Made by a program: the position numbers and the translations under genes. Positions 9,262 through 59,082 of a stretch of DNA of 64,000 nt are shown here, piece after piece (the first letter of the stretch is position 1; each line of letters starts with the position of its first letter). This stretch comes from a bacterium (GTDB taxonomy: Bacteria; Chloroflexota; Dormibacteria; Aeolococcales; Bog-877): contig JAKAXE010000001.1 of assembly GCA_021816695.1 (NCBI GenBank), positions 67,344 through 131,343 on the forward strand, in the 5' to 3' direction. The notes beneath the pieces are model-generated. The model was not told the DNA's origin. It saw only the letters and a list, made by a program, of their open reading frames with translations, and made no database searches.

Positions 9262-9280
9262 GCTTGCAGCATACGGAGCG

Positions 9281-39981: not shown

Positions 39982-40647
39982 TCACGGCCCCGCCAAGGCC
40001 GAGCGGCCACACAAGGCCAGGAACTCGCGGCGGAGGCCCGGGTCCTGGTCGTAGCTCCCGCGCCAGAAGGTGGTCTTGGTGCTCGACTGAAGCTCGCGCA
40101 CTCCTCTCATCTGAGTGCACATGTGGGTGCCCTCGAGGTATACCGCGATCCCGTGCGCCCCCAGCGTCGTGTCCAGGAAGTCGACTATCTCCTGGCCCAG
40201 TCGCTCCTGCACCGTGAAACGGCGAGCGTACAGCCGGACCACCCTGGTCAGCTTGGAGAGCCCGATGATGTCCTGGTGGGCGATGTAGCCCACGTGCGCC
40301 CGCCCGTAGAAGGGCAAGGCGTGATGCTCGCAGAGCGAGAAGTAGGGGATCGGTCCCTCCACCACCTGGGCGATGCGGCAGTCCGGCCCGCCCCGGCACT
40401 CGGTCGGGAAGGTGGTGATGAGCTTCGGGTCTCCGTCGTACCCACTGGTGGCGTCGTGAATCGCGGCCAGAAACCGTTCCGGGGTGCGGCGGGTTCCGGG
40501 CCGGTCCGGGGGCAACCCCAGGGCTTCGAAGATCTCCGCGAGGTAGCCCTGGAAGCGTTCCTTCTGTGCCGGGGTCAGCCGCCCGTGGCGGCTCCCCTTT
40601 GGCTCCGCCTGGCCCCCCACGCTGGCCGTCTCAGGCCGCAGTGCCAT
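39982..40647 (-). CDS. folE: GTP cyclohydrolase I
   Basis: FSLCEHHALPFYG zinc/active-site motif and 221 aa. Confidence 0.9.
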   Translation of the reverse strand: MALRPETASVGGQAEPKGSRHGRLTPAQKERFQGYLAEIFEALGLPPDRPGTRRTPERFLAAIHDATSGYDGDPKLITTFPTECRGGPDCRIAQVVEGPIPYFSLCEHHALPFYGRAHVGYIAHQDIIGLSKLTRVVRLYARRFTVQERLGQEIVDFLDTTLGAHGIAVYLEGTHMCTQMRGVRELQSSTKTTFWRGSYDQDPGLRREFLALCGRSALAGP

Positions 40648-41323
40648 CGGCTCCGTCCTCTTCGAGAGTCTCCAGGCTGAAGACGCAGCCTCCGGCGTGG
40701 CAACGGAAGGGGGTGACGTGGCCGCGGAGGGGGCTTCCCGCGAGCACCCCCTCGATCAGGCCGGCATGGAGGTTCGGCACCAGGGCTGGCTCGGCCGCGC
40801 AGGCGTCTCTGAAGGCGCACCGCTCGACCACCACCTGTCCGGGTGGGTCCAGGTGGAGCCGGTCACCCAGCGTGACCAGGGGCTCGAGCCATTCGCCCGG
40901 TGAGCCCTCGGTACGTGCCAGAGATCTTCCCAGCCGGACGGCACTATCGCGGGCGGCCGCCTGGCCCCGAGCTCCGAACTCCCGGACGGTCTCGGAGAGC
41001 ACGCGCAAGGCGGTGAGCAGGCCGTGGGCCGGGGGCTCGTTGGGAGGAGGCTCGGGGGCCAGCCGGTATGTCTTGGTGGGCCGTCCGCGGGTGCCGCGGC
41101 GCAGCCCGGTGGCCAGGTAGCCCAGGCCGACCAGCTTCTCCAGGTGGGCGTAGGCCACAGAGCGGTGCACCCCGGCCAAGGTCACCACCTGGTCCACCGT
41201 CCGAGGCCGCGGATCGCTGTAGAAGGAGAACAGGATCCCCTTTCGGGTGGGGTCTTGGAGTGCGAGGACCATCCGCTCGGTCGCCTCTCGAGGTTCCACA
41301 GCGGTAGTATACTGCTCTTCCAC
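40631..41323 (-). CDS. Winged-HTH (ArsR/TrmB-like) transcriptional regulator with C-terminal Cys/His domain
   Basis: GTG start at 41323. wHTH region is TVDQVVTLAGVHRSVAYAHLEKLVGLGYLA. C-terminal domain motif is ERCAFRDAC...HAGLIEGVL...RCHAGGC. Paralogous to the regulator at 58390-59073. Confidence 0.6.
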   Translation of the reverse strand: MEEQYTTAVEPREATERMVLALQDPTRKGILFSFYSDPRPRTVDQVVTLAGVHRSVAYAHLEKLVGLGYLATGLRRGTRGRPTKTYRLAPEPPPNEPPAHGLLTALRVLSETVREFGARGQAAARDSAVRLGRSLARTEGSPGEWLEPLVTLGDRLHLDPPGQVVVERCAFRDACAAEPALVPNLHAGLIEGVLAGSPLRGHVTPFRCHAGGCVFSLETLEEDGADGTAA

Positions 41324-41387
41324 GATATGAATGGTGTAAAAGCTATCAATCAGCCCGGGGGTTCACCCCGGCTGGCCAGGGGTTGCC

Positions 41388-42281
41388 GTGGCTGAGCCGT
41401 GGTTCGACCGGCTGGTCCGGAGCCAGAGCTGGCTCGACCCGGTGGGGGGATTGGTCCAGGCCTCGCTCAAGAGCACCTTCACGGCTCTCGGCCCGCCGGG
41501 CGGCTTGGTCCGCGACCTGCTGCATGGTTCCAAGGGGTTGGGGCACCCGCTCCACCCCGCTCTCACAGACCTTCCGCTAGGCGCCTGGGGGGCCGGAGTG
41601 GCTCTGGACTACACCGCCCACTTCGACCCGAAGCTGGGCACACAAGCCGGCGACGCGGCCCTGGCGGTGGGCCTCCTGGTGGGAGTGGCGGCCGCCATCA
41701 CGGGCTTGACCGACTCGCAGGACACCTTCGGGCAGGAGTTGCGGGTCAACATGCTGCACGGCCTGACCATGGCGACAGCGCTCCTGCTTATGGCCGCTTC
41801 CCTGGGCCTGCGGTGGTGGTCCTCCTTCGCCTGGCATCCCTTGGCGCTGGGACTGTCGACGGCCGGCCTGGCGGTGGCCATGGCCGGCATGTACGCGGGC
41901 GGCCACCTCACCTTCGGTCTCGGGACCATGGTCAACCGAAGTGCCTTCCTGAGCGGGCCGACCAGCTTCACCAGCCTCGGCATGAGCAGCGACTTCCCTG
42001 AAGGGGAGCTGTGCCCTGTTGAGGCCGACGGGATGCGGGTGGTGGTGGCCCGGGTCCAGGGGCAGCTGTGTGCCCTGAGCGCCGTCTGTTCCCACGCGGG
42101 AGGGCCCCTCGCCGAGGGGAGGCTTCAGGGGAGTGTGGTCACCTGCCCCTGGCATGGCTCCCAATTCGACCTGAAGGACGGAAGGGTGCTGCGGGGACCT
42201 GCCACCTTCCCCCAGCCGCGGTTGGTGATTCAGGAGCGGGACGGCATCGTCGAGGGGCGTCTGGCACACCCGGTGCCATAG
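41388..42281 (+). CDS. Membrane-anchored Rieske [2Fe-2S] protein
   Basis: N-terminal 4-5 TM region followed by a Rieske domain with CSHAGGPL ... CPWHGSQF (CxH...CxxH). Confidence 0.75.
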   Translation: MAEPWFDRLVRSQSWLDPVGGLVQASLKSTFTALGPPGGLVRDLLHGSKGLGHPLHPALTDLPLGAWGAGVALDYTAHFDPKLGTQAGDAALAVGLLVGVAAAITGLTDSQDTFGQELRVNMLHGLTMATALLLMAASLGLRWWSSFAWHPLALGLSTAGLAVAMAGMYAGGHLTFGLGTMVNRSAFLSGPTSFTSLGMSSDFPEGELCPVEADGMRVVVARVQGQLCALSAVCSHAGGPLAEGRLQGSVVTCPWHGSQFDLKDGRVLRGPATFPQPRLVIQERDGIVEGRLAHPVP

Positions 42282-42301
42282 GCGGCGAAGGAGGACTGGG
42301 G

Positions 42302-42481
42302 ATGAGTGAACGTGTGCAGCCACATGCGGTGGAGGGAGCGGCGCATGTGGTGGTCGACCAGGGGATGCGACGCTGGTATGAGTCCTGCCCCTGCTGCCTG
42401 AGCGCCGCCTACCCGGAGGTGAAGCGGACCCTCGACCTCGAGCGAGCGGACCGCCGGGAGAGGACGGATGGCCACGGCTAG
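42302..42481 (+). CDS. Small hypothetical Cys-containing protein (about 59 aa)
   Basis: ATG at 42302 (MSERVQPHAV...WYESCPCCLSAAYPEV). Sits directly after the Rieske gene. Could be spurious. Confidence 0.2.
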   Translation: MSERVQPHAVEGAAHVVVDQGMRRWYESCPCCLSAAYPEVKRTLDLERADRRERTDGHG

Positions 42482-43592
42482 GGCTGTGCCCGTGGGCCGG
42501 GCAGTCCGGCCGCTGGACTGGGTGCGCCGAGCCGGGCAGTCGCTCTGGCTGGACAACCTGGACCGAACCCAACTCCGGAACGGGACGCTGGCCAGATGGG
42601 TGGAGGATCTCGGGCTGAGCGGCCTGACGTCCAACCCCTCGATCCTGGCCCGGGCCCTCACCGAGGGTCAGGCGCACGACGGCTCGATGATGATCTTCCT
42701 GAGGCGACAGGTCACCGACCCCCAGGAACTCGTCTATGCGGTGGCCTCGGAGGACCTGCTCGGGGCCGCCACGCTCTTCCTCCCCATCCACCAGCGCAGC
42801 CGCGGTGGGGACGGGTACGTCTCCCTGGAGATCCCTCCCGACCTCGCTCACGACTACCAGAAGACCCTGGCCTGGGGCCGACGACTCTCCGAGCAGGCCG
42901 GGATCCCGAACCTCCTGATCAAAGTGCCGGGCACCAGTGCCGGACTTGCGGCCGCCGAGGAGCTGATGGCTGGCGGGGTAGGGGTCAACCTGACCCTTTT
43001 GTTCTCGGAGACCCATTACCTGGGGGCAGCGGGCGCTCATCTCCGAGCCCTGGAGAGACGCAGGGTAGCGGGGCTCCCGCTTAACGTGCCCTCGGTGGCC
43101 TCCCTCTTCGTGTCCCGCTGGGATGGCGCAGCCGACACCCAGCTGCCGGAACGGCTCCAGCATCAGCTCGGCCTGGCGATGGCCCGTAGGGTTCTGGCCG
43201 CCTATCGATCGATCCTAGCCAGCCAGCGTTGGACGGAGCTGGCGGCCCTGGGTGCACTGCCCCAGCGGCTGCTGTGGGCTTCCACCTCCACCAAGGACGG
43301 CCGGCTGCCGGCGACGTACTATGCGGCCGCGCTGGTGGCGGGAGGCACGATCGACACCATGCCGGAGGTGACTCTCCTCGCCCTGGCCTCCGGCCCGGAG
43401 GGCTCCCCCATGGAGGAGCCCACCTCCGGAGCCGACCGGGTGATTGGGGAGGTGGAGGCCTGCGGGCTCGATGTCGACACCCTCGGCGAGTCCCTGCAGG
43501 CCCAGGGAGTCGAGCGTTTCGCCCGAGACTGGAAGACTCTGCTGGACGCCGTCGGCGAGAAGGCGGCCCAGCTGCGCTCGAGCCTACCTTGA
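42468..43592 (+). CDS. tal: Transaldolase (long actinobacterial type)
   Basis: SLWLDNLDR and TSNPSILARAL signatures, plus the catalytic Lys region (LIKVPGTSAG), 374 aa. Confidence 0.9.
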   Translation: MATARAVPVGRAVRPLDWVRRAGQSLWLDNLDRTQLRNGTLARWVEDLGLSGLTSNPSILARALTEGQAHDGSMMIFLRRQVTDPQELVYAVASEDLLGAATLFLPIHQRSRGGDGYVSLEIPPDLAHDYQKTLAWGRRLSEQAGIPNLLIKVPGTSAGLAAAEELMAGGVGVNLTLLFSETHYLGAAGAHLRALERRRVAGLPLNVPSVASLFVSRWDGAADTQLPERLQHQLGLAMARRVLAAYRSILASQRWTELAALGALPQRLLWASTSTKDGRLPATYYAAALVAGGTIDTMPEVTLLALASGPEGSPMEEPTSGADRVIGEVEACGLDVDTLGESLQAQGVERFARDWKTLLDAVGEKAAQLRSSLP

Positions 43593-43789
43593 CGGCCACA
43601 GGAAGGCCGCCGGGGGAGTCCCTCCGCCCGCCGTCGCAGAGCGGTCGGGACCACGAGGCCTCCTCGCCTGCGGCGGACGCGGCGGACGAGGCCGGCGACC
43701 CCGCCTGCTGGGCCGGGCTGCTCTGCCCCGACTGCGGGGCGGTGCTGAGAGAAGGCCACCAACCGGGGTGTGCCAGTTGGGAGTCGGGA

Positions 43790-44301
43790 TGAACGGCGAG
43801 GAGATCGCCCACGACCAAAGGGCTGCCGCTCAGTCCCGGGCCGGACAGCCGGCGCGCCTCGACTACTCGAAGGTGTTGCCGGCGGCGGTGCAGGCGATGG
43901 CCGGCCTGGAGCAGGTGGTGCACTCCTCGACCCTGGAGCCGGAGCTGCTCGAACTGGTCAAGGTGCGAGCGTCCCAGATCAATAGCTGCGGCTACTGCCT
44001 GGACATGCACACCAAGGACGCGGCGGCGCTGGGGATTGAGCCCCAGCGGCTGCACCTGGTGGCCGCCTGGCAGGAGGCGCCCATCTACTCAGATCGCGAG
44101 CGGGCAGCCCTCCTTTGGTGTGAGGCGCTCACGCTGCTGCCGGGATCGGGGGCTCCGGACCCGGCCTACCGGGAGGTGGCGGCCAACTTCTCGCCTGAGG
44201 AGGTGATCTCGCTCACCCTCGCCATCGTGGCCATCAACGGCTGGAACCGCCTGGCGGTGGGGTTCCGCACCCCCGTGGGCAGTTACCAGCGCAGGGGATG
44301 A
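43790..44301 (+). CDS. Carboxymuconolactone decarboxylase-family (AhpD-like) protein
   Basis: ATG at 43790 (MNGEEIAH...). AhpD-like motif region INSCGYCLDMHT (CxxC...H). Confidence 0.8.
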
Positions 44302-44304
44302 CCG

Positions 44305-45351
44305 GTGCCAACTCTCCCGGGTGCCGGGACGGCCGGCCTGCGCATCGGGACGGAGGAAGCTTCCTCCTGGCGCTGGCGGACCACTGGCCCGGGGTCGGCC
44401 ACGACCCTCATCGAGCTGCCTGAGAAGGCCCCGTTCCGGCTCGACCTCACCGTTTGGACCTTGAGGCGCCGCGGGCACAACCAGGTCGATCAGTACGACG
44501 GGACCTGGTACCGGCGGCTCCTGGCTGTCGACGGAGCCGCGGTGGGCGTGGCGGTGCGCCAGCTCGGCCCCAGGCTCGAGATAGTCGCGCGAGGTGAGCC
44601 CCAGGCGGTTTCTCCGGAAGCCCTCCACCTGGTGGGCGTCACCCTGGTGGACATACTGGGGCTCGGCAAGGAGCTTGCCGGCTTCTACCGGGTGCGGAAG
44701 GAGCCATGGCTGGAAGAGCTGGCCCGACGCTTCCGGGGCATGCGCCCACCGCGCTTTCCCAGTGTCTTCGAGGCCGCGGTGAATGCCGTGGTCTGCCAGC
44801 AGCTCAGCCTTGTCGTCGGCATTCACCTGCTCAACCGGCTCGCCGCCCGGTTTGGCACCCGGCCGCCACGGGCCATAGACGGCTGGGGTCCCGGGGCACC
44901 GGAGATGGGACGCATCGCCGGTGCCGACTGGCAGTCGCTGCGGGAGCTCGGCTTGAGCGGCTCCAAGTCAAGGTCTCTGGTGGCCATCGCTCAGGCTCTG
45001 AGCGGTGCGGACTTCGCCTCCGAGGCCCTGGCGGCGATGCCGGACCAACAGCTGGAGGAGAGGCTCCGCTCCCTGCCGGGGATCGGGCGCTGGAGCGCCC
45101 AGTATGTGATGCTCCGCGGGCTGGGTCGCTGGTCGATCCTCCCCGGCGACGACGTGGGTGCCCAGAACGCTCTGCGCCGGCGCTTCCAGCTTCCGGGACG
45201 GCCCGGGTACGAGGAGGTCCAGGAGCTCGCCCAAGCCTGGCGCCCGTACGCGGGTCTGGTCTACTTCCACCTTCTCCTCGCGGGACTCGAGATGGGCGAG
45301 TCAGGGCGGCTGAGCCGGGAGGAGACGGAAGCCGGGGTGGCGGGGCGGTGA
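44305..45351 (+). CDS. HhH-GPD DNA glycosylase, AlkA-like (DNA-3-methyladenine glycosylase II)
   Basis: N-terminal AlkA-like domain. HhH-GPD region LRSLPGIGRWSAQYVMLRGLG with the catalytic Asp context (PGDDVG). Confidence 0.7.
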   Translation: MPTLPGAGTAGLRIGTEEASSWRWRTTGPGSATTLIELPEKAPFRLDLTVWTLRRRGHNQVDQYDGTWYRRLLAVDGAAVGVAVRQLGPRLEIVARGEPQAVSPEALHLVGVTLVDILGLGKELAGFYRVRKEPWLEELARRFRGMRPPRFPSVFEAAVNAVVCQQLSLVVGIHLLNRLAARFGTRPPRAIDGWGPGAPEMGRIAGADWQSLRELGLSGSKSRSLVAIAQALSGADFASEALAAMPDQQLEERLRSLPGIGRWSAQYVMLRGLGRWSILPGDDVGAQNALRRRFQLPGRPGYEEVQELAQAWRPYAGLVYFHLLLAGLEMGESGRLSREETEAGVAGR

Positions 45352-48206
45352 CCGACGTCTTCAACTCGGAGTCAGAGCTCACGGTGGGTGGGCGGCGTTA
45401 CCGGATCAGCCGGCTGGCGTCGCTGCGAGACCTTGCGGATCTCGACGTCCTGCCCTACAGCATCAAGATCCTGCTGGAGAACCTGCTCCGTCACCAGCGG
45501 GACGGGGAGGTCTCTTCCGAGGCGGTGGCTGCCCTGGCCAGGTGGGCCCGGGGGGGCGGTCAATCCCTGGAGCTCCCCTTCCACCCCGAGCGGGTCCTGC
45601 TTCAGGACTTCACCGGGGTGCCTGCGGTAGTGGACCTGGTGGCACTCCGGGACGCCCTCTCCGAGCTGGGCGGTGACAGCGTCCAGGTGAACCCCAAGGT
45701 CCCGGTGGAGCTGATCGTGGATCACTCGGTGATCGTGGATGAATGGCGCGGATCGGCTGCCTTCGACGTCAACCGTACGCTCGAGTTCTCCCGCAACCGG
45801 GAACGCTACCGTCTGCTGCGCTGGGCTCAGCAGGGCTTCCGCCAGTTCGCAGTGGTGCCTCCGGACACTGGGATCTGTCACCAGGTCAACTTGGAGCACC
45901 TCGCCCGGGTGGTGTTCGCCACCGAGGAGGGGGAAGCGTATCCCGACACCTTGGTGGGCACCGACTCTCACACCCCGATGGTCAACGGAATCGGTGTCCT
46001 GGGGTGGGGAGTGGGGGGCATCGAAGCGGAGGCGGCGATGCTGGGACACCCGGTTCCTGTCCCCATGCCCGTGGTGGTCGGGGTATACCTGGAGGGGGAG
46101 CTGCCCCCCACGGCCACCGCCACGGACCTCGTCCTGACGCTGACCCAGTTGCTCCGTCAGCACGGGGTGGTGGGCAAGTTCGTGGAGTTCACCGGCCCCG
46201 GCCTCAGCCGGCTGCGGGTCGAGCACCGCGCCACCCTGGGCAACATGGCGCCTGAATACGGGGCCACCTGTGCCATCAGCCCGATCGACCAGGCCACCCT
46301 GGACTACCTGCGCCTCACCGGCCGGCCAGGTTCCCACGTGGAGCTAGTGGAAGCCTATGCCCGGGAGCAGGGGCTGTTCTTTGACCCCGGCAACCCCCTC
46401 CCGCAATTCTCCGAGCTGGTGCACCTGGACCTCTCCAAAGTGGAGACGTCTTTGGCCGGCCCGGCCCGCCCTCAGGATCGAGTGGCGCTGTCACTCGTGC
46501 CCCAGTCCTTCCGCAGCCACCTCGGGGCACTGGCGCCCGAGACCATGGACTCCGGCACTTTGGCTCCGACCTGGACCCCACCTCCGCTCGTGGATGGGTC
46601 CTGTGAGCAGGCCTCGGCAGACTCCTTCCCCGCCAGCGACCCCCCGGCGTCGAACTGCGCGGGAGCCGCGCACGGCGAGCCCGGTGCTGATCGACCGGAG
46701 GCCGCCAGCCCTCCCGCTCTGCCCAAGGAGCTGTCGGGCAGGCGCAGGCGCGTCGTCGAGGTGGAGCTAGATGGACAGGTGGTGCCGATCGACGACGGCC
46801 ACGTGGTCATCGCCGCCATCACCAGCTGCACCAACACCTCCAACCCCGAGGTGATGGTGGCCGCCGGGCTGATGGCCCGGCGGGCGGTTGACCTCGGGCT
46901 GCGCCGCAAGCCCTGGGTGAAGACCTCGCTGGCACCGGGGTCGAGGGTGGTGATGCGCTACCTTCGCCGGGCGGGCCTGGACCGGCCGCTCGCCGAACTT
47001 GGCTTCAACCTGGTCGGGTACGGATGCACCACCTGCATCGGCAACTCGGGGCCGCTGATCCCGGAGGTGTCCGCGGCGGCGCGGGAGAAGGGGCTCGTAG
47101 TGGCTGCGGTCCTCTCCGGTAACCGCAACTTCGAAGGCCGGATCCACCCCGAGGTGCGCCTCAACTACCTGGCCTCGCCCCCGCTGGTGGTGGCGTATGC
47201 GCTGGCAGGCTCCCTCGACTTCGACTTCGGAGCTCAGCCCTTGGGGACCTCCTCGGATGGCCGTCCTGTCTGGCTCCGGGACCTCTGGCCCGGCGCGCAG
47301 GAGATCGGCGATGTCGTGTCGCAGGTGCTGACCAGCGAGCAGTTCCGGGATGAGTACCGGACCGTCTTCCAGGGGGATGAACTCTGGGAGCGGCTGTTAC
47401 CTCAGGACGCCGCCCGGTTTGTCTGGGAGCCCGAATCGACCTACGTGCGGCGGCCCCCCTTCCTCACCGGGGTGGCGAGGGCGGCCGTTCCGCCTGGGGA
47501 CATCCAGGGGGCTCGTTGCCTAGCGCTGCTTGGGGACAGCGTCACCACCGACCACATCTCTCCGGCTGGCGCGATCAGTCCCGACGGGCCGGCCGGCTCG
47601 TACCTCAGGGGGCACGGGGTGGCCGTACCTGATTTCAACTCCTTCGGCTCGCGGCGGGGCAACCACGAGGTGATGATCAGGGGCACCTTCGCCAACCCGC
47701 GGCTTAGGAACCAGCTTGTGCCCGGCGTAGAGGGGGGGTACACCCGGCATCATCCCAGTGGCCGCACCATGACTATCTACGACGCCTCCTGCCTGTACCA
47801 GGAGGCGGGGACTCCGCTGCTGGTCGTGGCCGGCCGCGACTACGGCTCGGGCTCCTCGCGCGACTGGGCCGCCAAGGGCACGCGGTTGCTGGGCGTGCGC
47901 GCGGTAGTGGCCCAGAGCTTCGAGAGGATTCACCGCTCGAACCTGGTGGGCATGGGCGTGCTCCCCATCGAGTTCTGGAACGGCGCCAGCGCGGCTCAGC
48001 TCGAGCTGACCGGAGAGGAGACCTTCGATCTGCTGGGGATCGCAGACTTGCTCGAGGGGGACCTGGCTGCACTGAGGCTGATAGCCGACGGGCGGGAGCT
48101 CCCGGTGCGGGCGCGGCTCGACTCCCCGACCGAGATCGACCAATTCCGGCACGGGGGCATCCTGCCCCTGACCTTGCGCCAGCTCCTGGGGACGGCCCCA
48201 CTTTGA
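45347..48206 (+). CDS. acnA: Aconitate hydratase A
   Basis: GTG at 45347 overlaps the alkA-like stop (GTGA). Full-length aconitase features include IKILLENLLR, the Fe-S ligand cysteines (ITSCTNTSNP, GYGCTTCIGNSG) and the swivel domain. The 1166-aa track ORF from 44706 is an out-of-frame extension into the glycosylase gene and is rejected. Confidence 0.95.
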
Positions 48207-48310
48207 GCCGGGCCCAGGGACCTCCCACGGGTGGGCCCGGTTCGAAGGATCCGAAGCCCCGGGGTGGGACCGGGACGGACGCGCGTGAGAGAACCGGGTG
48301 GGCCTCCGGC

Positions 48311-48733: not shown

Positions 48734-48978
48734 GGCAGCACGACCCGGGGGCGAGGGTCACGGCCGGGCGGCTCCCCACCACGGGCCGAGCGGATCAGGC
48801 CGCTCCGGCGCTCGTAGGCGGGGCACGCCGGTCCCCTTCTCGACCGTCACCTCCGGGGCGCGCACCCAATCGCCAGCCCGGCCACGGCCTAGGCCAAGAG
48901 CACCGGAGGAAGGCTGATAGGGCAGGTGAGTATCGGCTGGGGTGGATCGGGCGGGAGGAGCCACACCGGGGTGCCCGG

Positions 48979-50267: not shown

Positions 50268-50436
50268 GCCATCAGGATGCCTTCTCGGCGTGTTGTGGAG
50301 TGGTTGGCCTTGGGCCAGGGCCCCTTGAGCTCCACCCCGCCTGGCCGGTGAGAGCGAGGCGGCCCTGGCGGGACGGGCTCGTACCGGGCGGCGTCACTGC
50401 CCGCGCCCGGGGAACGCGCCGGTTCCGGGCCTCAGG

Positions 50437-51603: not shown

Positions 51604-51708
51604 CAGGTGGACCCGCCACCGCGAGGGGTGGTCCGGCCCCGGCGAGGGCGGCGACCAGTGCCGCCGGGCGCGCTACAAGCGGGAAGGCCCGGGCGGGGCA
51701 TCAGGATA

Positions 51709-51731
51709 ATTACACTATATGCGTCGTGTTA
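51709..51731 (+). promoter_or_regulatory. Operator-like dyad TTACAC-N10-GTGTTA in an AT-rich patch 12 nt upstream of the NnrS-like gene start
   Basis: Seen directly. Same core and spacing as the dyad at 59083-59104. Confidence 0.4.
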
Positions 51732-51742
51732 AAGGTTAGGGG

Positions 51743-53062
51743 ATGATCCGCCCGCAGCGAAGCCCCGAGATCGGCCTGCCTCTGCGCTACCTGGCGACAG
51801 GGATGGGGGCCTGGCTGCTGGCGGCCGTGGCGGTGCCCGTGCTGGCCTCCCACCTCACCTCGGGATTCGACGACCCGGAGGTCTTCGCCCTGACCCATCT
51901 CGTGGTGCTGGGCTGGGTGACCATGACACTCATGGGGGCCCTCTTCCAGCTCTTCCCGGTGGCCCTCCAGGCCACCCTTGCCGCACCGCGCCTGGTCCGA
52001 TGGAACTACTTCGTCTACACGGCTGGGGTGGCCGGCTTTGTGCCCAGCTTCTACTTCAACTGGACCCCGGGCGTGGCCGGCTTCGGGAGCCTTGCGGTTC
52101 TCGGGATCCTGGTCTTCGCCGCGGTGCTGGCCGTCAGCTACCGGACCGTCCGCACCCGGCACCCCATGGGGCTGTTCGTCCTCTGCGGGCTCGCCTGGCT
52201 CCTGGTCACTATCGGCTTCGGGCTGACCTGGGCCCTGGACTGGCAGTTCCAGTGGTTCGCGATCACCCCCAACATGCTCGCCGCCCACGTCCACGCCGGG
52301 CTGGCGGGTTGGTTGGGATGCACTCTGATCGGAGTCTCGTACAAGCTCATGGAGCTGTTCGCGCTGGCGCACCGCCGCAGCTGGCGGGCGGCCCACATCC
52401 TGCTGGTCCTCTGGAACGGCTCTCTGGCGGCGCTGGTGCTGGGTCTTCTGCTCTGGCCCGGCAGCATCGAGGTCAGGGTGGCGTCCACCGCGCTCGCTGG
52501 AGCGGTGCTCCTGTTCGCGGCCGACCTCTTCCAGATGTGGCGAGGGCGACGCCGTCGCCGGGTCTCCGTGGAGCAGGGCCACGTGGCCGTCAGCCTCACC
52601 TCGCTGCTGATGGCGGCAGGCCTGGGGGTCCTGCTCAGCGCCGGGGTCGATTTCCCCCCGCGGGCCTTCGTCGCCTACGGCTACGCCGCCATCATGGGAG
52701 GATTCGGCTTCGCCATCGCCGGCCGGTACCAGAAGATCCTCCCCTTCCTCACCTGGGTCCATCGCTACTCTCGGGGCCCCGGGCCAACTCCGCCTCCGTT
52801 GCTCCAGGACCTCGTGGATGAGCGCCTGGGATGGATCAGCCTGCTTGTCCTCACCGCGGGATACGCCACCACTTTGGGAGGCCTCCTTGCTGGTTCGCCG
52901 GTGGCGGTCCTGGGAGGTGGTGCGGTGTACGCCGCCGGGGCGGTGCTGGGGCTGGGGGCGGTGCGCCTCACCCTCCTTCCGGCCCGTGCCGCCCGGCGGT
53001 CGTCCCCTGCTGCTGCCCTGCCAGGATCACGGACCGGGACCTCGGCGCCCCCCTCCCCCTGA
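51743..53062 (+). CDS. Polytopic (about 12 TM) membrane protein, possibly NnrS-like heme-copper protein
   Basis: 439 aa with about 12 hydrophobic helices and conserved-looking His residues in helices (THLVVLGW, HVHAGLAGW, HRRSWRAAH). The assignment rests on topology and genomic context and is uncertain. Confidence 0.45.
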   Translation: MIRPQRSPEIGLPLRYLATGMGAWLLAAVAVPVLASHLTSGFDDPEVFALTHLVVLGWVTMTLMGALFQLFPVALQATLAAPRLVRWNYFVYTAGVAGFVPSFYFNWTPGVAGFGSLAVLGILVFAAVLAVSYRTVRTRHPMGLFVLCGLAWLLVTIGFGLTWALDWQFQWFAITPNMLAAHVHAGLAGWLGCTLIGVSYKLMELFALAHRRSWRAAHILLVLWNGSLAALVLGLLLWPGSIEVRVASTALAGAVLLFAADLFQMWRGRRRRRVSVEQGHVAVSLTSLLMAAGLGVLLSAGVDFPPRAFVAYGYAAIMGGFGFAIAGRYQKILPFLTWVHRYSRGPGPTPPPLLQDLVDERLGWISLLVLTAGYATTLGGLLAGSPVAVLGGGAVYAAGAVLGLGAVRLTLLPARAARRSSPAAALPGSRTGTSAPPSP

Positions 53063-53067
53063 GCAGG

Positions 53068-54332
53068 TGGTGAAGGCTACTCCAACTCGGAAACCGCCGC
53101 CCACCGTGGTGGTGATCGGGGCGGGGTTCGCCGGTCTGGCCGCGATGGCGGATCTCGCCAGGCTGGGCTGGGACGCCTGGCTGGTGGAACGGCAGCCCTA
53201 CACGACCTTCCAGCCGCTTCTCTACCAGGTGGCGACCGGGGGCCTGAATCTGGAGGATGTCGCCTTCCCCATCCGCAGCCTGCTGCGCCGGATGGGTCGC
53301 GGAAGATTCGTGCAGGGCGTCGCGGCCTCCGTCGACTGGGACCTGAGACAGGTGACCCTGGAAGGTGGGCAGACCCTCTCTTACGACCACCTGCTGCTGG
53401 CCACGGGAGCCGCACCCAAGTTCTTCGGTGTGCCCAGCGCGGCCGAGTTGGGGCTTCCCCTCCACACCCTGGTGGACGCGGCCCGGCTGCGAACTCGGCT
53501 CGTTGCGGTGCTGGAGCGGGCCGCCGCCGACCACACCCAGCACCGGGTGCACCTGGTGGTGGTGGGAGGAGGGCCGACCGGGGTGGAGACGGCCGGGGCG
53601 CTGGCGGAGCTCCGGGACCTTTTGGCGGGGAGGGACTATCCGGAACTGGGCCGGGATGACATCAGCATCGAGCTCCTGGAGGCGGCTCCGCGGCTGCTCC
53701 CCAGCTTTCACCCGGAGCTGTCCCGCTACGCTCGCCGGGAGCTGGAACGGCGCTCTGTGGTCGTTTTAACCGGCAGCGCAGTCCGGCAGGTGCAGGAAGG
53801 GGCGGTCCTTCTCGACTCCGGGCTGAGGCCTACGGACCTTTTGGTCTGGTCGGCCGGAGTGGAGGTGGCCGACTCCCCCTTGCTGCGCGGCCTGGCCCGG
53901 ACCGCGTCGGGGCGGCTGGACGTCACCCCTTCCCTGCAACTGCCAGGTCACCCAGAGGCCTTTGCCCTGGGGGACTGTGCCGGCGCGCGAGCCGGCACGG
54001 CTGAACTGCCGCAGCTGGCTCAGCCAGCGATCCAGGCCGGTCGGCATGCGGTGCGGCAGCTGCGCCGGATTCGCTCCGGTCAGGAGCCCCTGCCCTTCCG
54101 GTATCGCGACCGGGGGACCATGGCCACCATCGGCAGGCGGGCGGCGGTGGCCCAGCTTCGAGGCGGGCTCAGGCTCACCGGAACGGCCGCCTGGCTCGCC
54201 TGGCTGGGGCTACACCTAGTGGAGCTCCTCGGGGTCCGCAACCGAGCCTCGGTCCTGCTCAATTGGACCTGGCACTACCTGGCCTGGCGGCAGGCCGCGG
54301 GACTGATCCCACCAGCACCTGGCCCCGGATAG
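53068..54332 (+). CDS. ndh: Type II NADH:quinone oxidoreductase (NDH-2)
   Basis: VVVIGAGFAGL and VVVGGGPTGVE dinucleotide-binding motifs. GTG start near 53068. The track ORF from 52818 overlaps the preceding gene in another frame. Confidence 0.8.
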
Positions 54333-54348
54333 CCAGGCCCCGGACTCC

Positions 54349-54741
54349 TCAGGGTCCGGGGAGGACGGCGAGAGCCGCTCCCAGTCCGAGAATGGCAATC
54401 GAGCCGATCAGGGTCATGCCCGCCAGAAGCCGGGTGCGGTGCCGAGGCAACCGATGCGCCACCAGGCCGTGGACCGCCGCCAGGGCGAAGACAGCTCCCA
54501 CGAGCGCCGCCTTCACCAAAAGGACCCTTCCGAAGGCAGTGGTGGTGAGGTTGCCGAGGCGCACCCCGTTCAGGGCGGCCAGGGCGATCCCGCTGGCCAC
54601 CAGCACCGGCAGAAGCACCCAGTTGGTGACCGTCGCGAAGCGCCGTCCCGTAGAACTCGCCAGCTCCCGCACCAGCTGCGGTGACCCGCCGCTGCGCAGC
54701 ACGGGCATGACCACCACGACAAGCATGAGCTGGCCCCCCAC
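54349..54741 (-). CDS. Small hypothetical membrane protein (about 130 aa)
   Basis: Four short hydrophobic helices. The frame extends upstream without a clear start (GTG in WVGG or the ATG). The 219-aa track ORF 54275-54934 in another frame is Arg/Pro-rich and rejected. Confidence 0.35.
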   Translation of the reverse strand: MGGQLMLVVVVMPVLRSGGSPQLVRELASSTGRRFATVTNWVLLPVLVASGIALAALNGVRLGNLTTTAFGRVLLVKAALVGAVFALAAVHGLVAHRLPRHRTRLLAGMTLIGSIAILGLGAALAVLPGP

Positions 54742-54834
54742 CCAGAAGCTGGCGGCCAGGACATGAACCAGGACGAGGAGTGTCCACAGCAGCGGGCTCA
54801 GCGCATGTTCTCCGGCTACCGGAGGGGGCGCGGA

Positions 54835-55386
54835 TCAGCCGCCAACTAGCTGCTCCATCCGTTCCCAAAGCTCTGTCCGAGCGTGGGAGTCCAGGGGCGG
54901 TCGGCCCAGGACGAGCACGGTCGGCTCGTCCCACCCGAGATCCCAGGATGCGCTGAGCCGTCCCGAATCCGGTTCTGTGGACTCCACGGTCATGGAGAAG
55001 GGCGTCCTCAGCATCCGCAGGGTCTCCTCAAGCTCGCGGAGGGGAAGGATCCCGGTGGCGGAAAAGCGCAGCTCTAGACCATCCGCCTGGTCGGCCCGGG
55101 CCGTGCAGCTGGTCTCGTCGGCGACCGCAGCTGCCAACCGGTGGGCGATGAGGTGCGCCCGCGTGGTGGTCTGGGAGTCGAGCAGCTCCCCCTGGATCTG
55201 CTTCCACGAGGCGCCCTGGGTCAGGCGCTCCATGGCGTGGAGGGCTGAGGTCACCTCACGCGGCTCCATCGGGCCGATGGAAAGGGAGACCTCGAGGAGT
55301 GCCCCGCACCCCTGGCTCCGACCTCGCTCTGGGGAAAGCCCGGCCACCACCTCCACGGCTTCGCCGGGCGCCGTCCGAGATGCCAA
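54835..55386 (-). CDS. Hypothetical protein, last gene of the redox operon
   Basis: 183 aa of ordinary composition, 3 nt downstream of fdxA. No motif. Confidence 0.4.
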   Translation of the reverse strand: MASRTAPGEAVEVVAGLSPERGRSQGCGALLEVSLSIGPMEPREVTSALHAMERLTQGASWKQIQGELLDSQTTTRAHLIAHRLAAAVADETSCTARADQADGLELRFSATGILPLRELEETLRMLRTPFSMTVESTEPDSGRLSASWDLGWDEPTVLVLGRPPLDSHARTELWERMEQLVGG

Positions 55387-55388
55387 CC

Positions 55389-55694
55389 TCAGGCCCCCTG
55401 CACCACCCGCGGCTTGAGCTCCTCAACCCGGGCCCGGGCTGCGGCCGGATCCTTGAAGTACTGCTCATTGATCTCCGTGTACTGGTTCCACTGCGGCGGC
55501 AGGTCCTCCTCCGCGTAGATGGCGTCCACCGGACAGGGGTCCACACACGCCCCACAGTCGATGCACTCCAGAGGGTTGATGTAGAGCATGCGATCCTCGT
55601 CGGTCCCGATGATGCAATCGACCGGGCACACCTCGACGCAGGCCTTGTCCTTCACATCGACACAAGTCTCTCCGATCACGTAGGTCAACGCCAT
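55389..55694 (-). CDS. fdxA: 7Fe ferredoxin ([3Fe-4S][4Fe-4S], FdxA type)
   Basis: TYVIGETCVDVKDKACVEVCPVDCI ... CIDCGACVDPCPVDAI Cys pattern, 101 aa. Confidence 0.9.
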   Translation of the reverse strand: MALTYVIGETCVDVKDKACVEVCPVDCIIGTDEDRMLYINPLECIDCGACVDPCPVDAIYAEEDLPPQWNQYTEINEQYFKDPAAARARVEELKPRVVQGA

Positions 55695-55728
55695 TCCTCC
55701 TCAGGGCTAGGTCGAGCCCCCATGCAGG

Positions 55729-56040
55729 TCACCGCTCCACCTCGATTACGACCTCGTCGTGCTCCCGAAGGGTGGGATACGTCTGCAGCGGGAGCACCGC
55801 CGGAAGGTTGAGCACGTCCCCAGTGGCGAGGTCGAAGCACGACCCGTGGCAGGGGCATTCCACGGCCTCCCCCTCCAGCGCCCCCGCACTGAGCGAGCAG
55901 TCCTCGTGGGTACAGGTGTCATCCACCGTGTACCAGCCACCACTCTCGGTGTGGGCCAGGCAGAGGACCTTCTCGCCGAGCTCGAGGCGAAGAAGTCCTG
56001 GCCGCGGTAGCGTGGCCACCGGGATTCGGACGGTCGCCAC
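55729..56040 (-). CDS. Soluble Rieske [2Fe-2S] ferredoxin-like protein (NirD/oxygenase-ferredoxin type)
   Basis: CTHEDCSL ... CPCHGSCF (CxH...CxxH). Start is probably the GTG near 56040 (VATVRIP...). The track ORF extends to 56199. Confidence 0.7.
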   Translation of the reverse strand: MATVRIPVATLPRPGLLRLELGEKVLCLAHTESGGWYTVDDTCTHEDCSLSAGALEGEAVECPCHGSCFDLATGDVLNLPAVLPLQTYPTLREHDEVVIEVER

Positions 56041-56041
56041 C

Positions 56042-56284
56042 TCAGCTGGCGCGGACACGACTACCCCCTTGCGGCCGCCGGCAGGTGAGGTGATGGAGGG
56101 TCCCGGTGAAGCGCTCGGCAGCCGCTGGGTCCCACTTCTCCAAGAGGGCGTAGGCGGAAGCCGCCATCCGGCAGGCGCTCTCCACCTGGCCGGCATCACC
56201 GAGCTCCCGCAGGGCCTGGTCCAGGATCCTGGCCAGCCTGCCTGTGGCGGTCACTGCGAGCGGCGCCCGATCCGGACCTTCCAT
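56042..56284 (-). CDS. Small hypothetical protein (80 aa)
   Basis: ORF of ordinary composition bridging the OsmC-fusion and Rieske genes. Overlaps the OsmC-fusion C-terminus by 34 nt, so coding status is uncertain. Confidence 0.25.
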   Translation of the reverse strand: MEGPDRAPLAVTATGRLARILDQALRELGDAGQVESACRMAASAYALLEKWDPAAAERFTGTLHHLTCRRPQGGSRVRAS

Positions 56285-56925
56285 GTCTTCGGGCCCTGCT
56301 CCAGGTATTCCCAGCTGAACTCCTCGCCCCTGGTGGCCTCGAGCTGGTAGCGCAGGGGCAGAGGATCATGGTCGTTCACCAGGGTTAGGTTCCTGCCGGC
56401 CTCCAGCCGGTCGATGGTGGAGAAGATCAGCTGATGGCGCTGGGCAGGGGCCAGGGAGCGGACGTCCAGTTCCTCCTGCGCCGCTTCGGGGGCTCGGACC
56501 GACACCCGGCCCACCCGGTACTCCACCTCGCTCCGCAGGTGCTTGCCGATGAAGCAGTGCTCCCGGGCCAGGTTGGCCGCAGACTGGTAGGCGTCATGGC
56601 GCGTGGGATCTCCGCCCAGCACCTCTGGGGTCACCAGGAGCTCAGAGATCCGCAGCGGCTGGCCCTCCACCCGCTGTCGCATCCTCACCTGGACCTTATC
56701 CCAGGGGAGGCCGTCTCGGTTCAGGAGTGAACTGAGGGTGCCGGTGTAACAGGTGGCGACCGCGCTGGCCAGGAGCTCCTCCGGGCTGCTCCCCTCGCCC
56801 CGCCCGCCCATCCCGGCGGGGACGGACCAGGCCAGGACCTGGTCCCCGGTCTCGACTGTGCCGAGCGCGTCCCGGCCGACTCCGGACCACCGGGTGGTCA
56901 CCTCGAACGTCAGCTCATTCATCAT
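56251..56925 (-). CDS. OsmC/Ohr-family domain fused to a C-terminal DUF2249-like domain
   Basis: N-terminal OsmC-like region TRWSGVGRD...SPEELLASAVATCY. C-terminal LDVRSLAPAQRHQLIFSTIDRLEAGRNLTLVNDHDPLPLRYQLE, which resembles the stand-alone DUF2249-like protein at 57815-58051. Confidence 0.6.
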   Translation of the reverse strand: MMNELTFEVTTRWSGVGRDALGTVETGDQVLAWSVPAGMGGRGEGSSPEELLASAVATCYTGTLSSLLNRDGLPWDKVQVRMRQRVEGQPLRISELLVTPEVLGGDPTRHDAYQSAANLAREHCFIGKHLRSEVEYRVGRVSVRAPEAAQEELDVRSLAPAQRHQLIFSTIDRLEAGRNLTLVNDHDPLPLRYQLEATRGEEFSWEYLEQGPKTWKVRIGRRSQ

Positions 56926-57822
56926 TCATCTCCCTTCTTCCCCATCGCCCTTCCCTGCCTCTTGCTGAGGCATGGGCTCCTCCGGATGGCCTCCCGTCAG
57001 GCTCTGCACCATTGCCTCCCGCTCATCCGGGCCGAGCCGGGAGAGCAGGGGAAGGTACAGCTCCTCCTCCTTGTCGAAGTGCAGCTGGACCGTCGTCGCC
57101 AGCTGCTGGAGCAGCGCGCGCACCTCCTCCGAGCGCCCCGCGGCAGCCGCTCGCTCCAGATCCCCTGCCAACCGCTCGATGCGGCGGTGGTCGTACTCCA
57201 TGGTGGCGGTCGCCTTGGCTTCAGCCCTGAGCACCCGGCCTACCTGGGGGTAGATGAGGCGCTCCTCGGCTCGCGCGTGCGGGAGGAGTTCATTCTCCAG
57301 GAACTCGATCGCGGTCTGGATCTCTCCGTCAAGCTGATCGACGTCGCCTCTCGAAAGTCGCTGGGCGAGAAGGCCCAGGTGGGCCACCCCGTTGATCAGC
57401 TCCCGGTGCTCGGAGCGGATGACGGCTGCCGGGTCCGGGCCCGGGGGCCGCACCGGCCAGGCCACCGACTCATCTCCCAGGTGGTCGCCCGCACCGGGTG
57501 GAGGGGACACGATGGCCAGCGCCACGAGCCGCCCGGCAGGGCAACGCACTCCCCGAGCGACACCGGCTGGTACGGTGGCCACCTCCCCCGCCAGGAGCCA
57601 CCGAGTCGTGTCGCCGGTGAGCAGTTCGGCCGTTCCCTGAAGGACGCAGAGGACCAGCCCGCTGGTCGGGCGGTGAGGTGGCAGCTCCCGCCCGGGCGTC
57701 AGCTCCAGCAGGAGCACCCGGTGCGAGGGCGCATCGCTCAGGGTTCGAGCGATCGGACCCCCACTGGATCGGACCTTATCAGAATGGATCACCTCGACTT
57801 CGGTGGCCGCTGCCTCACCCAT
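56926..57822 (-). CDS. Cupin domain fused to hemerythrin-like (HHE cation-binding) domain
   Basis: N-terminal cupin beta-barrel pattern (LLELTPGRELPPHRPTSGLVLCVLQG). C-terminal His/Glu/Asp pattern HRELINGVAHL...EFLENELLPHARAEE...MEYDHRRIE...LHFDKEEELYLPLL. Confidence 0.7.
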   Translation of the reverse strand: MGEAAATEVEVIHSDKVRSSGGPIARTLSDAPSHRVLLLELTPGRELPPHRPTSGLVLCVLQGTAELLTGDTTRWLLAGEVATVPAGVARGVRCPAGRLVALAIVSPPPGAGDHLGDESVAWPVRPPGPDPAAVIRSEHRELINGVAHLGLLAQRLSRGDVDQLDGEIQTAIEFLENELLPHARAEERLIYPQVGRVLRAEAKATATMEYDHRRIERLAGDLERAAAAGRSEEVRALLQQLATTVQLHFDKEEELYLPLLSRLGPDEREAMVQSLTGGHPEEPMPQQEAGKGDGEEGR

Positions 57823-58051
57823 CGCGCCGCGCCTCCAGTGGGCTGAAGACCACCAGGAAGTCTCCCTCGCCCAGGTCCTCCGTCTCGTGGCCGTATCCCC
57901 GGGACTCCATCACCGAGTAGAGAGGAACCGGGTCGAGGGGCGCCACGAGCTCGAGCGGTTCTCCAGGGGAGAGGGCGGAGACCGCCGCCATGATCGCCGC
58001 GAAGGGCTCTTCTCCTCTGGCCATCAGCCCCCGGACATCCAGATGGGCCAT
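57815..58051 (-). CDS. DUF2249-like small protein (78 aa)
   Basis: LDVRGL...PFAAIMAAVSALSPGEPLELVAPLDPVPLYSVMESRGYGHE matches the DUF2249 pattern seen fused in the neighbouring gene. Confidence 0.5.
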   Translation of the reverse strand: MAHLDVRGLMARGEEPFAAIMAAVSALSPGEPLELVAPLDPVPLYSVMESRGYGHETEDLGEGDFLVVFSPLEARRDG

Positions 58052-58057
58052 CCGACC

Positions 58058-58393
58058 TCAGCTCCAGCCCAGGGCTTGCTTGGCGGCGGGACTCATCATG
58101 TCCGGCTCCCAAGGTGGCTGCCACACCAGCTCCACCGCCACCTCACGGACTCCTGGGATCGTCTCCAGGCGGAACCGGACCTGATCTGGGATGCTGCCCC
58201 CCATTGGGCAGCCCGGGGTGGTCAGGGTCATCGCTACCAGCAGAGCACCTTCGTGGACCTCGAGTCCGTACACCAGCCCCAGGTTCACGAGGTCGATGCC
58301 CAGCTCGGGATCGTAGACCTCCAGGAGGCGCTGCCAGGCTTCCTGCTCGATCGCTGGGTCGCCCAGGGTGTCCGCCAGCGGTGGTGTCATCAC
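58058..58393 (-). CDS. DUF59 / SufT-like Fe-S cluster assembly protein (MIP18 family)
   Basis: YDPELGIDLVNLGLVY ... TPGCPMG motif, 111 aa. Confidence 0.75.
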   Translation of the reverse strand: MMTPPLADTLGDPAIEQEAWQRLLEVYDPELGIDLVNLGLVYGLEVHEGALLVAMTLTTPGCPMGGSIPDQVRFRLETIPGVREVAVELVWQPPWEPDMMSPAAKQALGWS

Positions 58394-59073
58394 TCACCCG
58401 CGCTGGTGACCGCATCCCTGCCGGCGAGATCGGCGACGCAGAGGTTCGGCTCGACCAGCGGGTGGAGCTCGGAGACGGTGACCCCGGCCCCGACCTCTGC
58501 CAGCGCCCCGCGCAGCAAGCCCAGGTGCGCTGAGCAGATGAGCTGGCGGTTCCCGGCGGCCACTTCCAGGAACGGGCAGCGGTGAAGGTTGATTCGCGAC
58601 CGCCCCTGAACCTCTTCGAGCTCCGGGCTGAACCCCAGGTCCGCCAGCATCCCGAGGACCCGGGGTAGCCCCCCTCCGCTCTCGGCAGCGTCCGCACGCG
58701 CGAGCTCGGCACCCCACCGGGTTCCGAGCTCCAGGCCCGTCCTCTCAGCACTGGGGGACGAGGTCGAGAGATAGCCGGACAGCACCTCGGCCAGCATCCG
58801 GTATCCGGCCTCTGGCCCTGCATTCACCACTGCATGCCAGATCCGCCGGGGCCGGCCCCGGCGCAACCGACGCTCCGTCTCCGAGGCGACCAAGCCTGCG
58901 CGCGCCAGCACCTCGAGATGGAATCGCACCGTGTTCACATGTATCCCCGCCCGCTCCGCGAGCTCCTGGGCGTCCAGCGGCGCCGGGGCCCTGCGAAGCT
59001 CCTCGAGCAGGGCGACCCGGGTCCAGTCCGAGAGGGCCCGGTGGGCCCGTAGGGAGGTCTCAGGTGTGCTCAT
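58390..59073 (-). CDS. ArsR-like winged-HTH regulator with C-terminal Cys/His domain; first gene of the redox operon
   Basis: ATG at 59073-59071 (MSTPETS...). wHTH region [32 protein letters not shown]-terminal motif HRCPFLE...[15 protein letters not shown]. The 378-aa track ORF from 59526 is an upstream over-extension. Confidence 0.7.
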
Positions 59074-59082
59074 GCCGATATT

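Follow-up and report, generated by a model that had tools for sequence, protein, structure and literature searches.

A December 2025 preprint that presents the cryo-electron microscopy structure of SufR from Mycobacterium tuberculosis also defines COG2345, a large family whose members are transcription factors of the SufR-like [4Fe-4S] type (bioRxiv 10.64898/2025.12.26.696629). SufR has a winged helix-turn-helix (wHTH) domain marked by an RRH motif and by a long wing that contains a GRP AT-hook; it dimerises through two helices, its sensory domain resembles TRAPPC3, and C179, C192, E195 and C220 bind its cluster; ArnR of Corynebacterium glutamicum belongs to the same family, with a His replacing the Glu ligand of SufR (bioRxiv 10.64898/2025.12.26.696629). 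ArnR (NCgl1138/Cgl1185) is a [4Fe-4S] sensor of nitric oxide (NO) with one cluster per subunit; it is O2-stable, di-nitrosylation abolishes its DNA binding, and according to its authors it has no significant similarity to Rrf2, Wbl or CRP/FNR regulators (PMC12343034). Here we describe two regulators of this type, reg1 and reg2, encoded on a 64,000-nucleotide (nt) stretch of contig JAKAXE010000001.1 (assembly GCA_021816695.1; hereafter the window), which has a G+C content of about 70%. The nearest relatives of both proteins come from metagenome-assembled genomes (MAGs) of Candidatus Dormibacteria/Dormibacterota. On the alignments presented below, reg1 and reg2 are almost certainly members of the COG2345 SufR-like family, and within it they fall in the ArnR-like branch with His at the fourth ligand position; we do not claim orthology to ArnR. 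They are new, uncharacterised members of an already described family, not a new kind of sensor or an unrecognised domain. As an overall explanation, we consider it likely that both are homodimeric ArnR-like factors that act as cluster-dependent repressors, with NO or oxidative damage as their signal.

Both genes lie on the minus strand. reg2 (58390–59073, ATG at 59073) encodes an ArnR-like regulator of 227 amino acids (aa), and reg1 (40631–41299) encodes a 222-aa ArnR/SufR-like regulator whose wHTH domain has RGRP in the wing and is followed by two long helices and, at the C-terminus, a Bet3-like domain. A preliminary description of the locus had placed the genes at 40631–41323 and 58390–59073. 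Both open reading frames (ORFs) were borne out, but the reg1 start at GTG 41323 probably lies upstream of the true one by 24 nt. GTG 41299 is preferred because a TATACT-N6-GTG arrangement is conserved in the window and in orthologous loci; moreover, gene callers begin a 50%-identical reg1 ortholog at the equivalent position, and a start at 41323 would put the TATACT hexamer within the coding sequence. Public gene calls start reg1 at M18, yielding a protein of 213 aa. Residue numbers of reg1 follow the 230-aa version of the preliminary description throughout.

The proposed paralogy of the two regulators was confirmed by pairwise alignment, in which BLASTP revealed 25% identity over 191 aa (E=3e-7), covering both the wHTH and the C-terminal motif. 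Alignment of the reg1 family against the reg2 family by hhalign gave a probability of 99.8% (E=2.3e-27, 198 columns), and the hidden Markov models (HMMs) built from the two families matched each other with E=4.7e-24 and 5.2e-14. Judged by these comparisons, reg1 and reg2 are full-length paralogs with a similarity well beyond chance. No third paralog was present among the six-frame ORFs of the window, which were searched with both family HMMs, each finding just the other protein.

Assignment to COG2345 relied on direct comparison with characterised members, using ArnR (NP_600411.1) and SufR sequences from the supplementary dataset of the SufR preprint (bioRxiv 10.64898/2025.12.26.696629). Pfam and NCBIfam models cover the N-terminal wHTH only (HTH_20 for reg2, E=4e-12), none spanning the C-terminal domain of either protein, and relatives carry the JGI label 'predicted ArsR family transcriptional regulator'. 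BLASTP aligned reg2 with ArnR at 28% identity over 201 aa (E=2e-18), placing C166, C180, H183 and C212 of reg2 opposite C179, C193, H196 and C223 of ArnR; reg1 aligned with ArnR over 186 aa (E=1e-5). The reg2 family profile matched M. tuberculosis SufR end-to-end in hhalign (198 columns, probability 97.3%, E=2.5e-11). In a joint alignment of reg1, reg2, ArnR and both SufR types, H52, G73, P75, Cys1 and Cys3 were invariant. The fourth-ligand position, three residues after Cys2, is occupied by His in both proteins (H183, invariant in the reg2 family; H186, at least 90% conserved in the reg1 family). The only match to the Rrf2 family was weak and lay in the wHTH region, and literature searches on DUF2231 and COG2345 returned nothing beyond the SufR preprint.

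ArnR shares with reg1 and reg2 the three-part architecture and the RGRP wing motif, and with reg2 also the spacing Cys-x13-Cys-x2-His followed by a distal Cys and the recognition helix HVNT-x-R-x-HLE. It differs in acting on narKGHJI and hmp, whereas reg1 and reg2 are not adjacent to narK or hmp and the window lacks an ArnR box; in addition, the two regulators belong to a different host phylum (Dormibacterota), have low identity to ArnR and have other predicted targets, and the rewired Cys set of reg1 described below is not reported for ArnR. SufR, the founding member of COG2345 (Rv1460 in M. tuberculosis; also cyanobacterial and Streptomyces proteins), has full-length profile homology to the reg2 family and resembles reg2 in the wHTH residues R50 and H52, the GRP AT-hook, the dimerisation-helix Tyr, the TRAPPC3-like sensory domain and three Cys residues. 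It differs in having Glu instead of His as fourth ligand and 12 instead of 13 residues between Cys1 and Cys2, and no suf genes adjoin reg1 or reg2.

AlphaFold2 models of reg2 and reg1 (mean predicted local distance difference test scores, pLDDT, of 85 and 82, respectively) displayed the same topology and order of secondary-structure elements. For both models, Foldseek retrieved ArsR/Phr-type wHTH proteins and, for the C-terminal half, Bet3/TRAPPC3 (2c0j_B for reg2 and 3kxc_C for reg1; probability 1.0; target-normalised TM-scores 0.48 and 0.60). No single chain covered all three domains in the PDB set searched, which contained no SufR structure. Searches of PDB sequences by phmmer and hmmsearch, again in a set without a SufR entry, returned ArsR-type wHTH proteins and weak TRAPPC3 matches only; the weak TRAPPC3 profile match spans the C-terminal region. 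In the three-domain fold that the models predict, a winged helix bearing the RGRP AT-hook is followed by a pair of long helices, and the C-terminal domain is Bet3/TRAPPC3-like. The fold relatives described for SufR and ArnR are likewise wHTH and TRAPPC3/Bet3-like proteins, and the MopR sensor has also been named. Bet3/TRAPPC3 and V4R-type sensors such as MopR share the C-terminal fold of reg1 and reg2 at a sequence identity of about 20%; they differ in lacking a DNA-binding domain and in having Zn, palmitate or small ligands bound instead of an Fe-S cluster.

The C-terminal Cys/His motif that had been noticed in both proteins is real, its columns being invariant or at least 90% conserved in both family alignments. 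In the alignment of the reg2 family (25 sequences), C166, C180, H183 and C212 are invariant, as are R50 and H52 of the recognition helix and G73-R74-P75; reg2 further displays the RGRP AT-hook at residues 72–75 and the conserved dimerisation-helix Tyr (Y91). In the alignment of reg1 with 20 relatives, C169 and C213 are invariant, and the conservation of C175 and H186 is 90% or more. When scored for equivalents of the three SufR Cys ligands (C179, C192 and C220), reg2 has all three and reg1 two. The earlier suggestion that the C-terminal domain may ligate a metal or an Fe-S cluster gains support from the homologs ArnR and SufR, which are demonstrated [4Fe-4S] factors, and from the coincidence of the reg2 Cys/His residues with the ligand positions of ArnR. 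From these alignments, the C-terminal domain of both regulators very probably has a sensory role based on a metal or on Fe-S; for reg2, we regard binding of a cluster as highly likely.

The ligand set of reg1 is unusual. Its candidate ligands are C169, C175, H186, C208 and C213; the canonical Cys2 is replaced by Pro183 (Ser in the closest relatives), and two further Cys residues, C175 and C208, are present. The column of C175 is an invariant Ala in the reg2 family, and in the reg1 model Cys208 is placed opposite Cys213 across a beta-hairpin turn. We tabulated positions 169, 175, 183, 186, 208 and 213 for 79 reg1-like proteins from metagenome loci. The pattern CCCH-x-C was found in 71 of the 79 and CCSHCC in four, and CCPHCC is the protein of the window; all five sequences without Cys183 have Cys208. 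A scan of 1.84 billion representatives clustered at 50% identity yielded 524 reg1 relatives at E<=1e-3 and 7 at E<=1e-30. The swapped sequences all fall under one representative, P0129, and the 40 next-best full-length representatives that were read all retain a Cys at a distance of three or four residues on the N-terminal side of the His position. Judged by these patterns, loss of Cys183 and gain of Cys208 probably represent a single lineage-specific ligand relocation that maintained the site, although the pattern is not a statistical proof, and reg1 is, by its sequence, a rare ligand variant of COG2345. It retains RGRP in the wing and the His of the recognition helix; most reg1 relatives have GKP. 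For reg1, we regard cluster binding as somewhat more probable than its absence.

reg2 heads a tightly packed putative operon on the minus strand, in which consecutive genes overlap (4 nt, 8 nt) or are separated by gaps of 0–93 nt. The first gene encodes a DUF59/FeS_assembly_P (SufT-like) protein (58058–58393; PF01883), whose start and the reg2 stop share 4 nt. It is followed by genes which Pfam identifies as DUF2249 (57815–58051), a cupin-hemerythrin protein (56926–57822) and an OsmC-DUF2249 fusion (56251–56925), by a small conserved ORF of about 70 aa (56042–56284) and by a soluble [2Fe-2S] Rieske protein of about 111 aa (approximately 55729–56064, the start being approximate; PF00355). The distal part consists of a ferredoxin with 4Fe-4S-binding domains (55389–55694, Pfam), an unknown 183-aa protein (54835–55386) and, at the end, a CopD-like membrane protein (54349–54741, Pfam); these three genes co-occur with reg2 orthologs. 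The small ORF had no Pfam match; over 61 aa it is 69% identical to the product of a 77-aa gene that occupies the corresponding operon position in locus L001, and conserved Cys and His residues are present. Divergent from reg2 and separated from it by a common control region of 72 bp lies a gene for a 671-aa DUF255/thioredoxin-domain protein (59146–61161, plus strand; PF03190), which is also the divergent partner of the reg2-type regulator in L001, L002, L009, L011, L012 and L019 and may be co-regulated with the reg2 operon.

The neighbourhood of reg2 relatives was surveyed at 80 species-level genome loci, using a search pattern that demanded C-x2-H and thereby excluded Glu-type neighbours. The gene most tightly linked to reg2-type regulators was DUF59, present at 32 of the 80 loci. 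Dormibacterota reg2 orthologs retain the DUF59/DUF2249/hemerythrin/OsmC core downstream. In a Gaiellales/Thermoleophilia clade with 43–48% identity to reg2, the DUF59 gene precedes the regulator, and DUF2249, Rieske, ferredoxin and RIC/ScdA-hemerythrin genes are found nearby. The conserved core of the reg2 module is DUF59/DUF2249/hemerythrin, which recurs in Dormibacterota and Gaiellales.

The tight linkage to DUF59, a FeS_assembly_P domain, would also suit a different role, in which reg2 is a SufR-type sensor of Fe-S supply that controls an accessory Fe-S assembly/repair operon (DUF59/SufT-like, ferredoxin, Rieske). A third clade of relatives fits this role as well, comprising nine Thermoleophilia/Gaiellaceae loci (L003, L032, L035, L036, L037, L039, L044, L045 and L059) where a regulator with 42–46% identity to reg2 is divergent from sufB/sufD, and M. 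tuberculosis SufR is reported to respond to NO as well. However, these suf-adjacent proteins form a separate clade in a neighbour-joining tree, and no matches to SufB, SufC or SufD were found in the window. The fourth ligand of reg2 is His as in ArnR and not the highly conserved Glu of SufR, the SufR_cyano model TIGR02702 scored 14.9 bits on reg2, in the wHTH only, against a cut-off of 178.8, and the richness of the module in hemerythrin, DUF2249, OsmC and RIC genes points to stress or N-oxide biology. We therefore consider an Fe-S supply sensor possible but doubtful. Orthology to SufR was rejected on the absence of suf genes, the His in place of Glu, the separate clade and the model score below cut-off. 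The sufB/sufD-adjacent relatives hold the position expected of SufR, yet have His at the fourth ligand.

Divergent from reg1 is a gene for a membrane protein with DUF2231 and [2Fe-2S] Rieske domains (41388–42281, plus strand; PF09990 and PF00355; CSH...CPWH intact). On the other side, GTP cyclohydrolase I (folE, 39982–40647, overlapping the reg1 stop by 17 nt), DJ-1/PfpI (39253–39915) and DUF488 (38533–39234) follow reg1 on the minus strand, all assigned by Pfam, and probably form the reg1 operon; their order is the same in L007, L090 and L092. The divergent DUF2231-Rieske gene and the downstream folE/DJ-1/DUF488 genes are conserved at all seven loci whose regulator has at least 49% identity to reg1 (L006, L007, L089–L092 and L169). 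Among the 76 more distant reg1-like loci (36–46% identity) none has a Rieske neighbour; a truncated globin gene (PF01152) follows the regulator on the same strand in 26 of them (within L093–L168). Truncated globins behind reg1-like regulators recall the control of hmp by ArnR, and the globin-linked clade suggests an NO- or O2-related regulon. The regulators of these globin-linked loci have the Cys pattern CCCH-x-C; an example is L148 (1529–2248). Globin-linked loci also have a DUF1622 gene downstream (14 loci) and a GGDEF-like protein, recognised by eye only, upstream (21 loci). Downstream of the DUF2231-Rieske gene in the window, the plus strand (42468–48206) encodes a transaldolase, a CMD/AhpD-like protein and an HhH-GPD glycosylase, with aconitase next by synteny with L006 and L007; the order from transaldolase to aconitase is conserved in relatives at 50% identity.

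Both Rieske genes had been noticed before, and their arrangement holds: the membrane-anchored Rieske gene is divergent from reg1, and reg2 heads the operon containing the soluble Rieske gene, which lies about 2.3 kb downstream on the same strand with its CxH...CxxH motif (CTH...CPCH) intact. The further proposal that the regulators govern Rieske modules fared less evenly. It would make both paralogs dedicated redox regulators with the Rieske genes as primary targets, and the co-occurrence data do reveal an enrichment near reg2-type regulators: the soluble Rieske gene is present in 9 of the 11 Dormibacterota loci with the whole operon in view (the window included), its orthologs at the matching operon position having 53–78% identity, and Rieske genes occur in 8 of about 24 Gaiellales loci, compared with 1 of about 37 remaining reg2-family loci. 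In L017 and L021, a full-length ortholog of the DUF2231-Rieske protein of the window (55% identity, 293 aa, to 41388–42281) is encoded upstream of the reg2 ortholog. In L021 (6673–10681) the order is a ferredoxin-reductase-type flavoprotein (Pyr_redox_2 and Reductase_C), DUF2231-Rieske, DUF488, the reg2 ortholog and its operon; in L017, the DUF2231-Rieske ortholog upstream of the regulator falls within 8404–10669. Genes that stand beside reg1 in the window therefore flank reg2 in those Dormibacteria MAGs. The cluster-binding parts of the two Rieske domains of the window (42087–42251 and 55747–55917) are 44% identical over 56 aa (E about 1e-10), a likeness that may reflect common ancestry of both genes or merely the conserved Rieske core.

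Rieske genes nevertheless lie outside the conserved core of the module. The reg2 operon of L001 has no Rieske gene at all, about two in three Gaiellales loci are without one, and adjacency to reg1 is limited to relatives of at least 49% identity, the 76 reg1-like loci below 47% identity being without Rieske and 26 of them having the truncated globin instead. Furthermore, characterised members of the family control suf, nar and hmp, not Rieske genes. The Rieske association is thus a real enrichment but not part of a conserved core, the case for a regulatory role is circumstantial, and Rieske genes are unlikely to be the primary targets of the two paralogs.

Least probable among the alternatives, and in our view improbable, is that the C-terminal domain is a site for Zn, for some other metal or for a small ligand and not for Fe-S, with reg1 perhaps a cluster-less degenerate paralog: the fold relatives TRAPPC3 (Zn-bound) and MopR, the likeness of Zn and Fe-S ligand sets, the missing Cys of reg1 and the caution of the SufR authors that cluster binding cannot be established for every family member (bioRxiv 10.64898/2025.12.26.696629) speak for it, but SufR and ArnR, both studied members, bind [4Fe-4S] through exactly aligned residues, and the loss of Cys2 in reg1 coincides with the gain of Cys208 while C169, C175, H186 and C213 are fixed, so that a site of at least four ligands is maintained.

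Both regulator genes have promoter-like elements immediately before their start codons. At reg1, a palindrome AGTATACT (41306–41313, minus strand) contains the -10-like hexamer TATACT six nt before GTG 41299, which implies a leaderless transcript; the palindrome may also be part of an operator. TATACT-N6-GTG recurs in L006, L007, L089, L090 and L092, with the variant CATACT in L091. The interval from the reg1 promoter region to the DUF2231-Rieske start at 41388 contains, on the plus strand, a G+C stem of 6 bp (CCGGGG-GTTCA-CCCCGG, 41355–41371). The reg2 promoter and candidate operator (59080–59105, minus strand) consist of a -10 element TATAAT (59080–59085), an inverted repeat CACAA-N6-TTGTG (59086–59101) and TTGACA (59100–59105). 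TATAAT ends six nt before the ATG, and the reg2 transcript is therefore predicted to be leaderless too. In about 15 of 17 reg2 orthologous loci (G)TGTATAAT is found six nt before the start codon, and the arrangement GTGTATAAT-N6-ATG/GTG is retained in the same number of loci. TTGACA is only 14 nt from TATAAT, and a promoter scan pairs it with TAATAT at 16 nt; the inverted repeat and TTGACA overlap the core promoter. SufR-type proteins recognise two A/T tracts around a dyad of low specificity, and the reg2 promoter region is compatible with recognition of this type. No further copies of GTGTATAAT or CACAA-N6-TTGTG were found in the window besides the reg2 promoter, so the wider regulon is not predictable from sequence.

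In the ArnR-like explanation that we favour, each protein would form a homodimer made up of the winged helix with AT-hook, the two dimerisation helices and the Bet3/V4R-like sensory domain holding a [4Fe-4S] cluster. The cluster would be ligated by C166, C180, H183 and C212 in reg2 and by the rewired set C169, C175, C213 and C208, with H186 nearby, in reg1. By binding to the A/T-containing core promoter, the holo-dimer would repress the leaderless operon that encodes it, perhaps together with the divergent gene, and nitrosylation or oxidative loss of the cluster would release the DNA. reg2 would thereby derepress a module for protection and repair of metal centres and for electron transfer (DUF59, DUF2249, hemerythrin, OsmC, Rieske, ferredoxin and CopD-like), while for reg1 the derepressed genes would be folE, DJ-1 and DUF488, with the divergent DUF2231-Rieske gene as a possible addition. 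On repressor action and on NO or oxidants as the signal, both inferred, our judgement is evenly divided.

Several neighbouring genes place the regulators in an NO/redox context. RIC/ScdA-hemerythrin genes are found near the Gaiellales relatives, globin genes at 26 reg1-like loci, and a respiratory nitrate reductase operon narGHJI in the window itself (27763–34473, plus strand; NarG, 1267 aa, assigned by Pfam; NarH, NarJ and NarI deduced from N-terminal sequence and the sizes of the ORFs). The distance to this operon is about 6 kb for reg1 and about 24 kb for reg2. The nar operon is followed by a SLAC1/TehA-like anion channel gene (35002–35961, plus strand). NsrR-type regulons typically include globins and RIC/YtfE hemerythrins. 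The DUF2249 proteins DrpA and DrpB are tied to nitrate respiration in Thermus, and DUF2249 proteins are induced in Haloferax under denitrification. Rrf2-family regulators (NsrR, RsrR, IscR) and WhiB-like proteins resemble the proposed mechanism in using an Fe-S cluster in a small DNA-binding protein as a switch for NO, O2 or redox; their folds and families are unrelated to those of reg1 and reg2.

A number of observations weigh against this explanation. Identity to ArnR is just 23–28%, and BLASTP against M. tuberculosis SufR was significant in the wHTH only. Family-wide, COG2345 has Cys2 in 97.85%, His at the fourth ligand in 19%, R50 in 83%, H52 in 85% and GRP in more than 97% of members; reg1 lacks the canonical Cys2 and the conserved dimerisation-helix Tyr, and the Arg of its recognition helix is replaced by Tyr. 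Because of these departures, DNA binding and cluster binding are less certain for reg1. At the reg2 promoter, neither the A/T tracts nor the dyad can be distinguished from ordinary promoter elements, and conservation of the neighbourhood within Dormibacterota may partly reflect shared ancestry and not co-regulation. Across the window, the ArnR box TAWTTAAWTA was absent even with up to two mismatches allowed, and no A/T tract was found 5' of narG, where the region is GC-rich. With both the ArnR box and the A/T tracts at narG missing, ArnR orthology and control of nar, considered as a candidate, were rejected.

That COG2345 comprises a large family of Fe-S transcription factors became known only with the December 2025 preprint, and targets are known for SufR and ArnR only. 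The present locus offers a regulon prediction for a third subgroup, namely the DUF59/DUF2249/hemerythrin/OsmC/Rieske/ferredoxin module found in two phyla. As a tentative proposal that we hold to be less probable than not, ArnR-like COG2345 regulators might define an unrecognised NO/redox stress regulon (DUF59, DUF2249, hemerythrin or RIC, OsmC and Rieske-ferredoxin, in some genomes with DUF2231-Rieske and ferredoxin reductase) common to Dormibacterota and Gaiellales, with reg1 as a ligand-swap variant (C169, C175, C208 and C213). If this is true, the new Cys set of reg1 would alter what the sensor responds to. The module could give a first functional handle on the DUF2249, DUF59 and DUF2231-Rieske proteins, and reg1, as a natural variant in which a 98%-conserved cluster Cys is replaced by other Cys residues, would be useful for understanding how the ligand set tunes Fe-S sensors.

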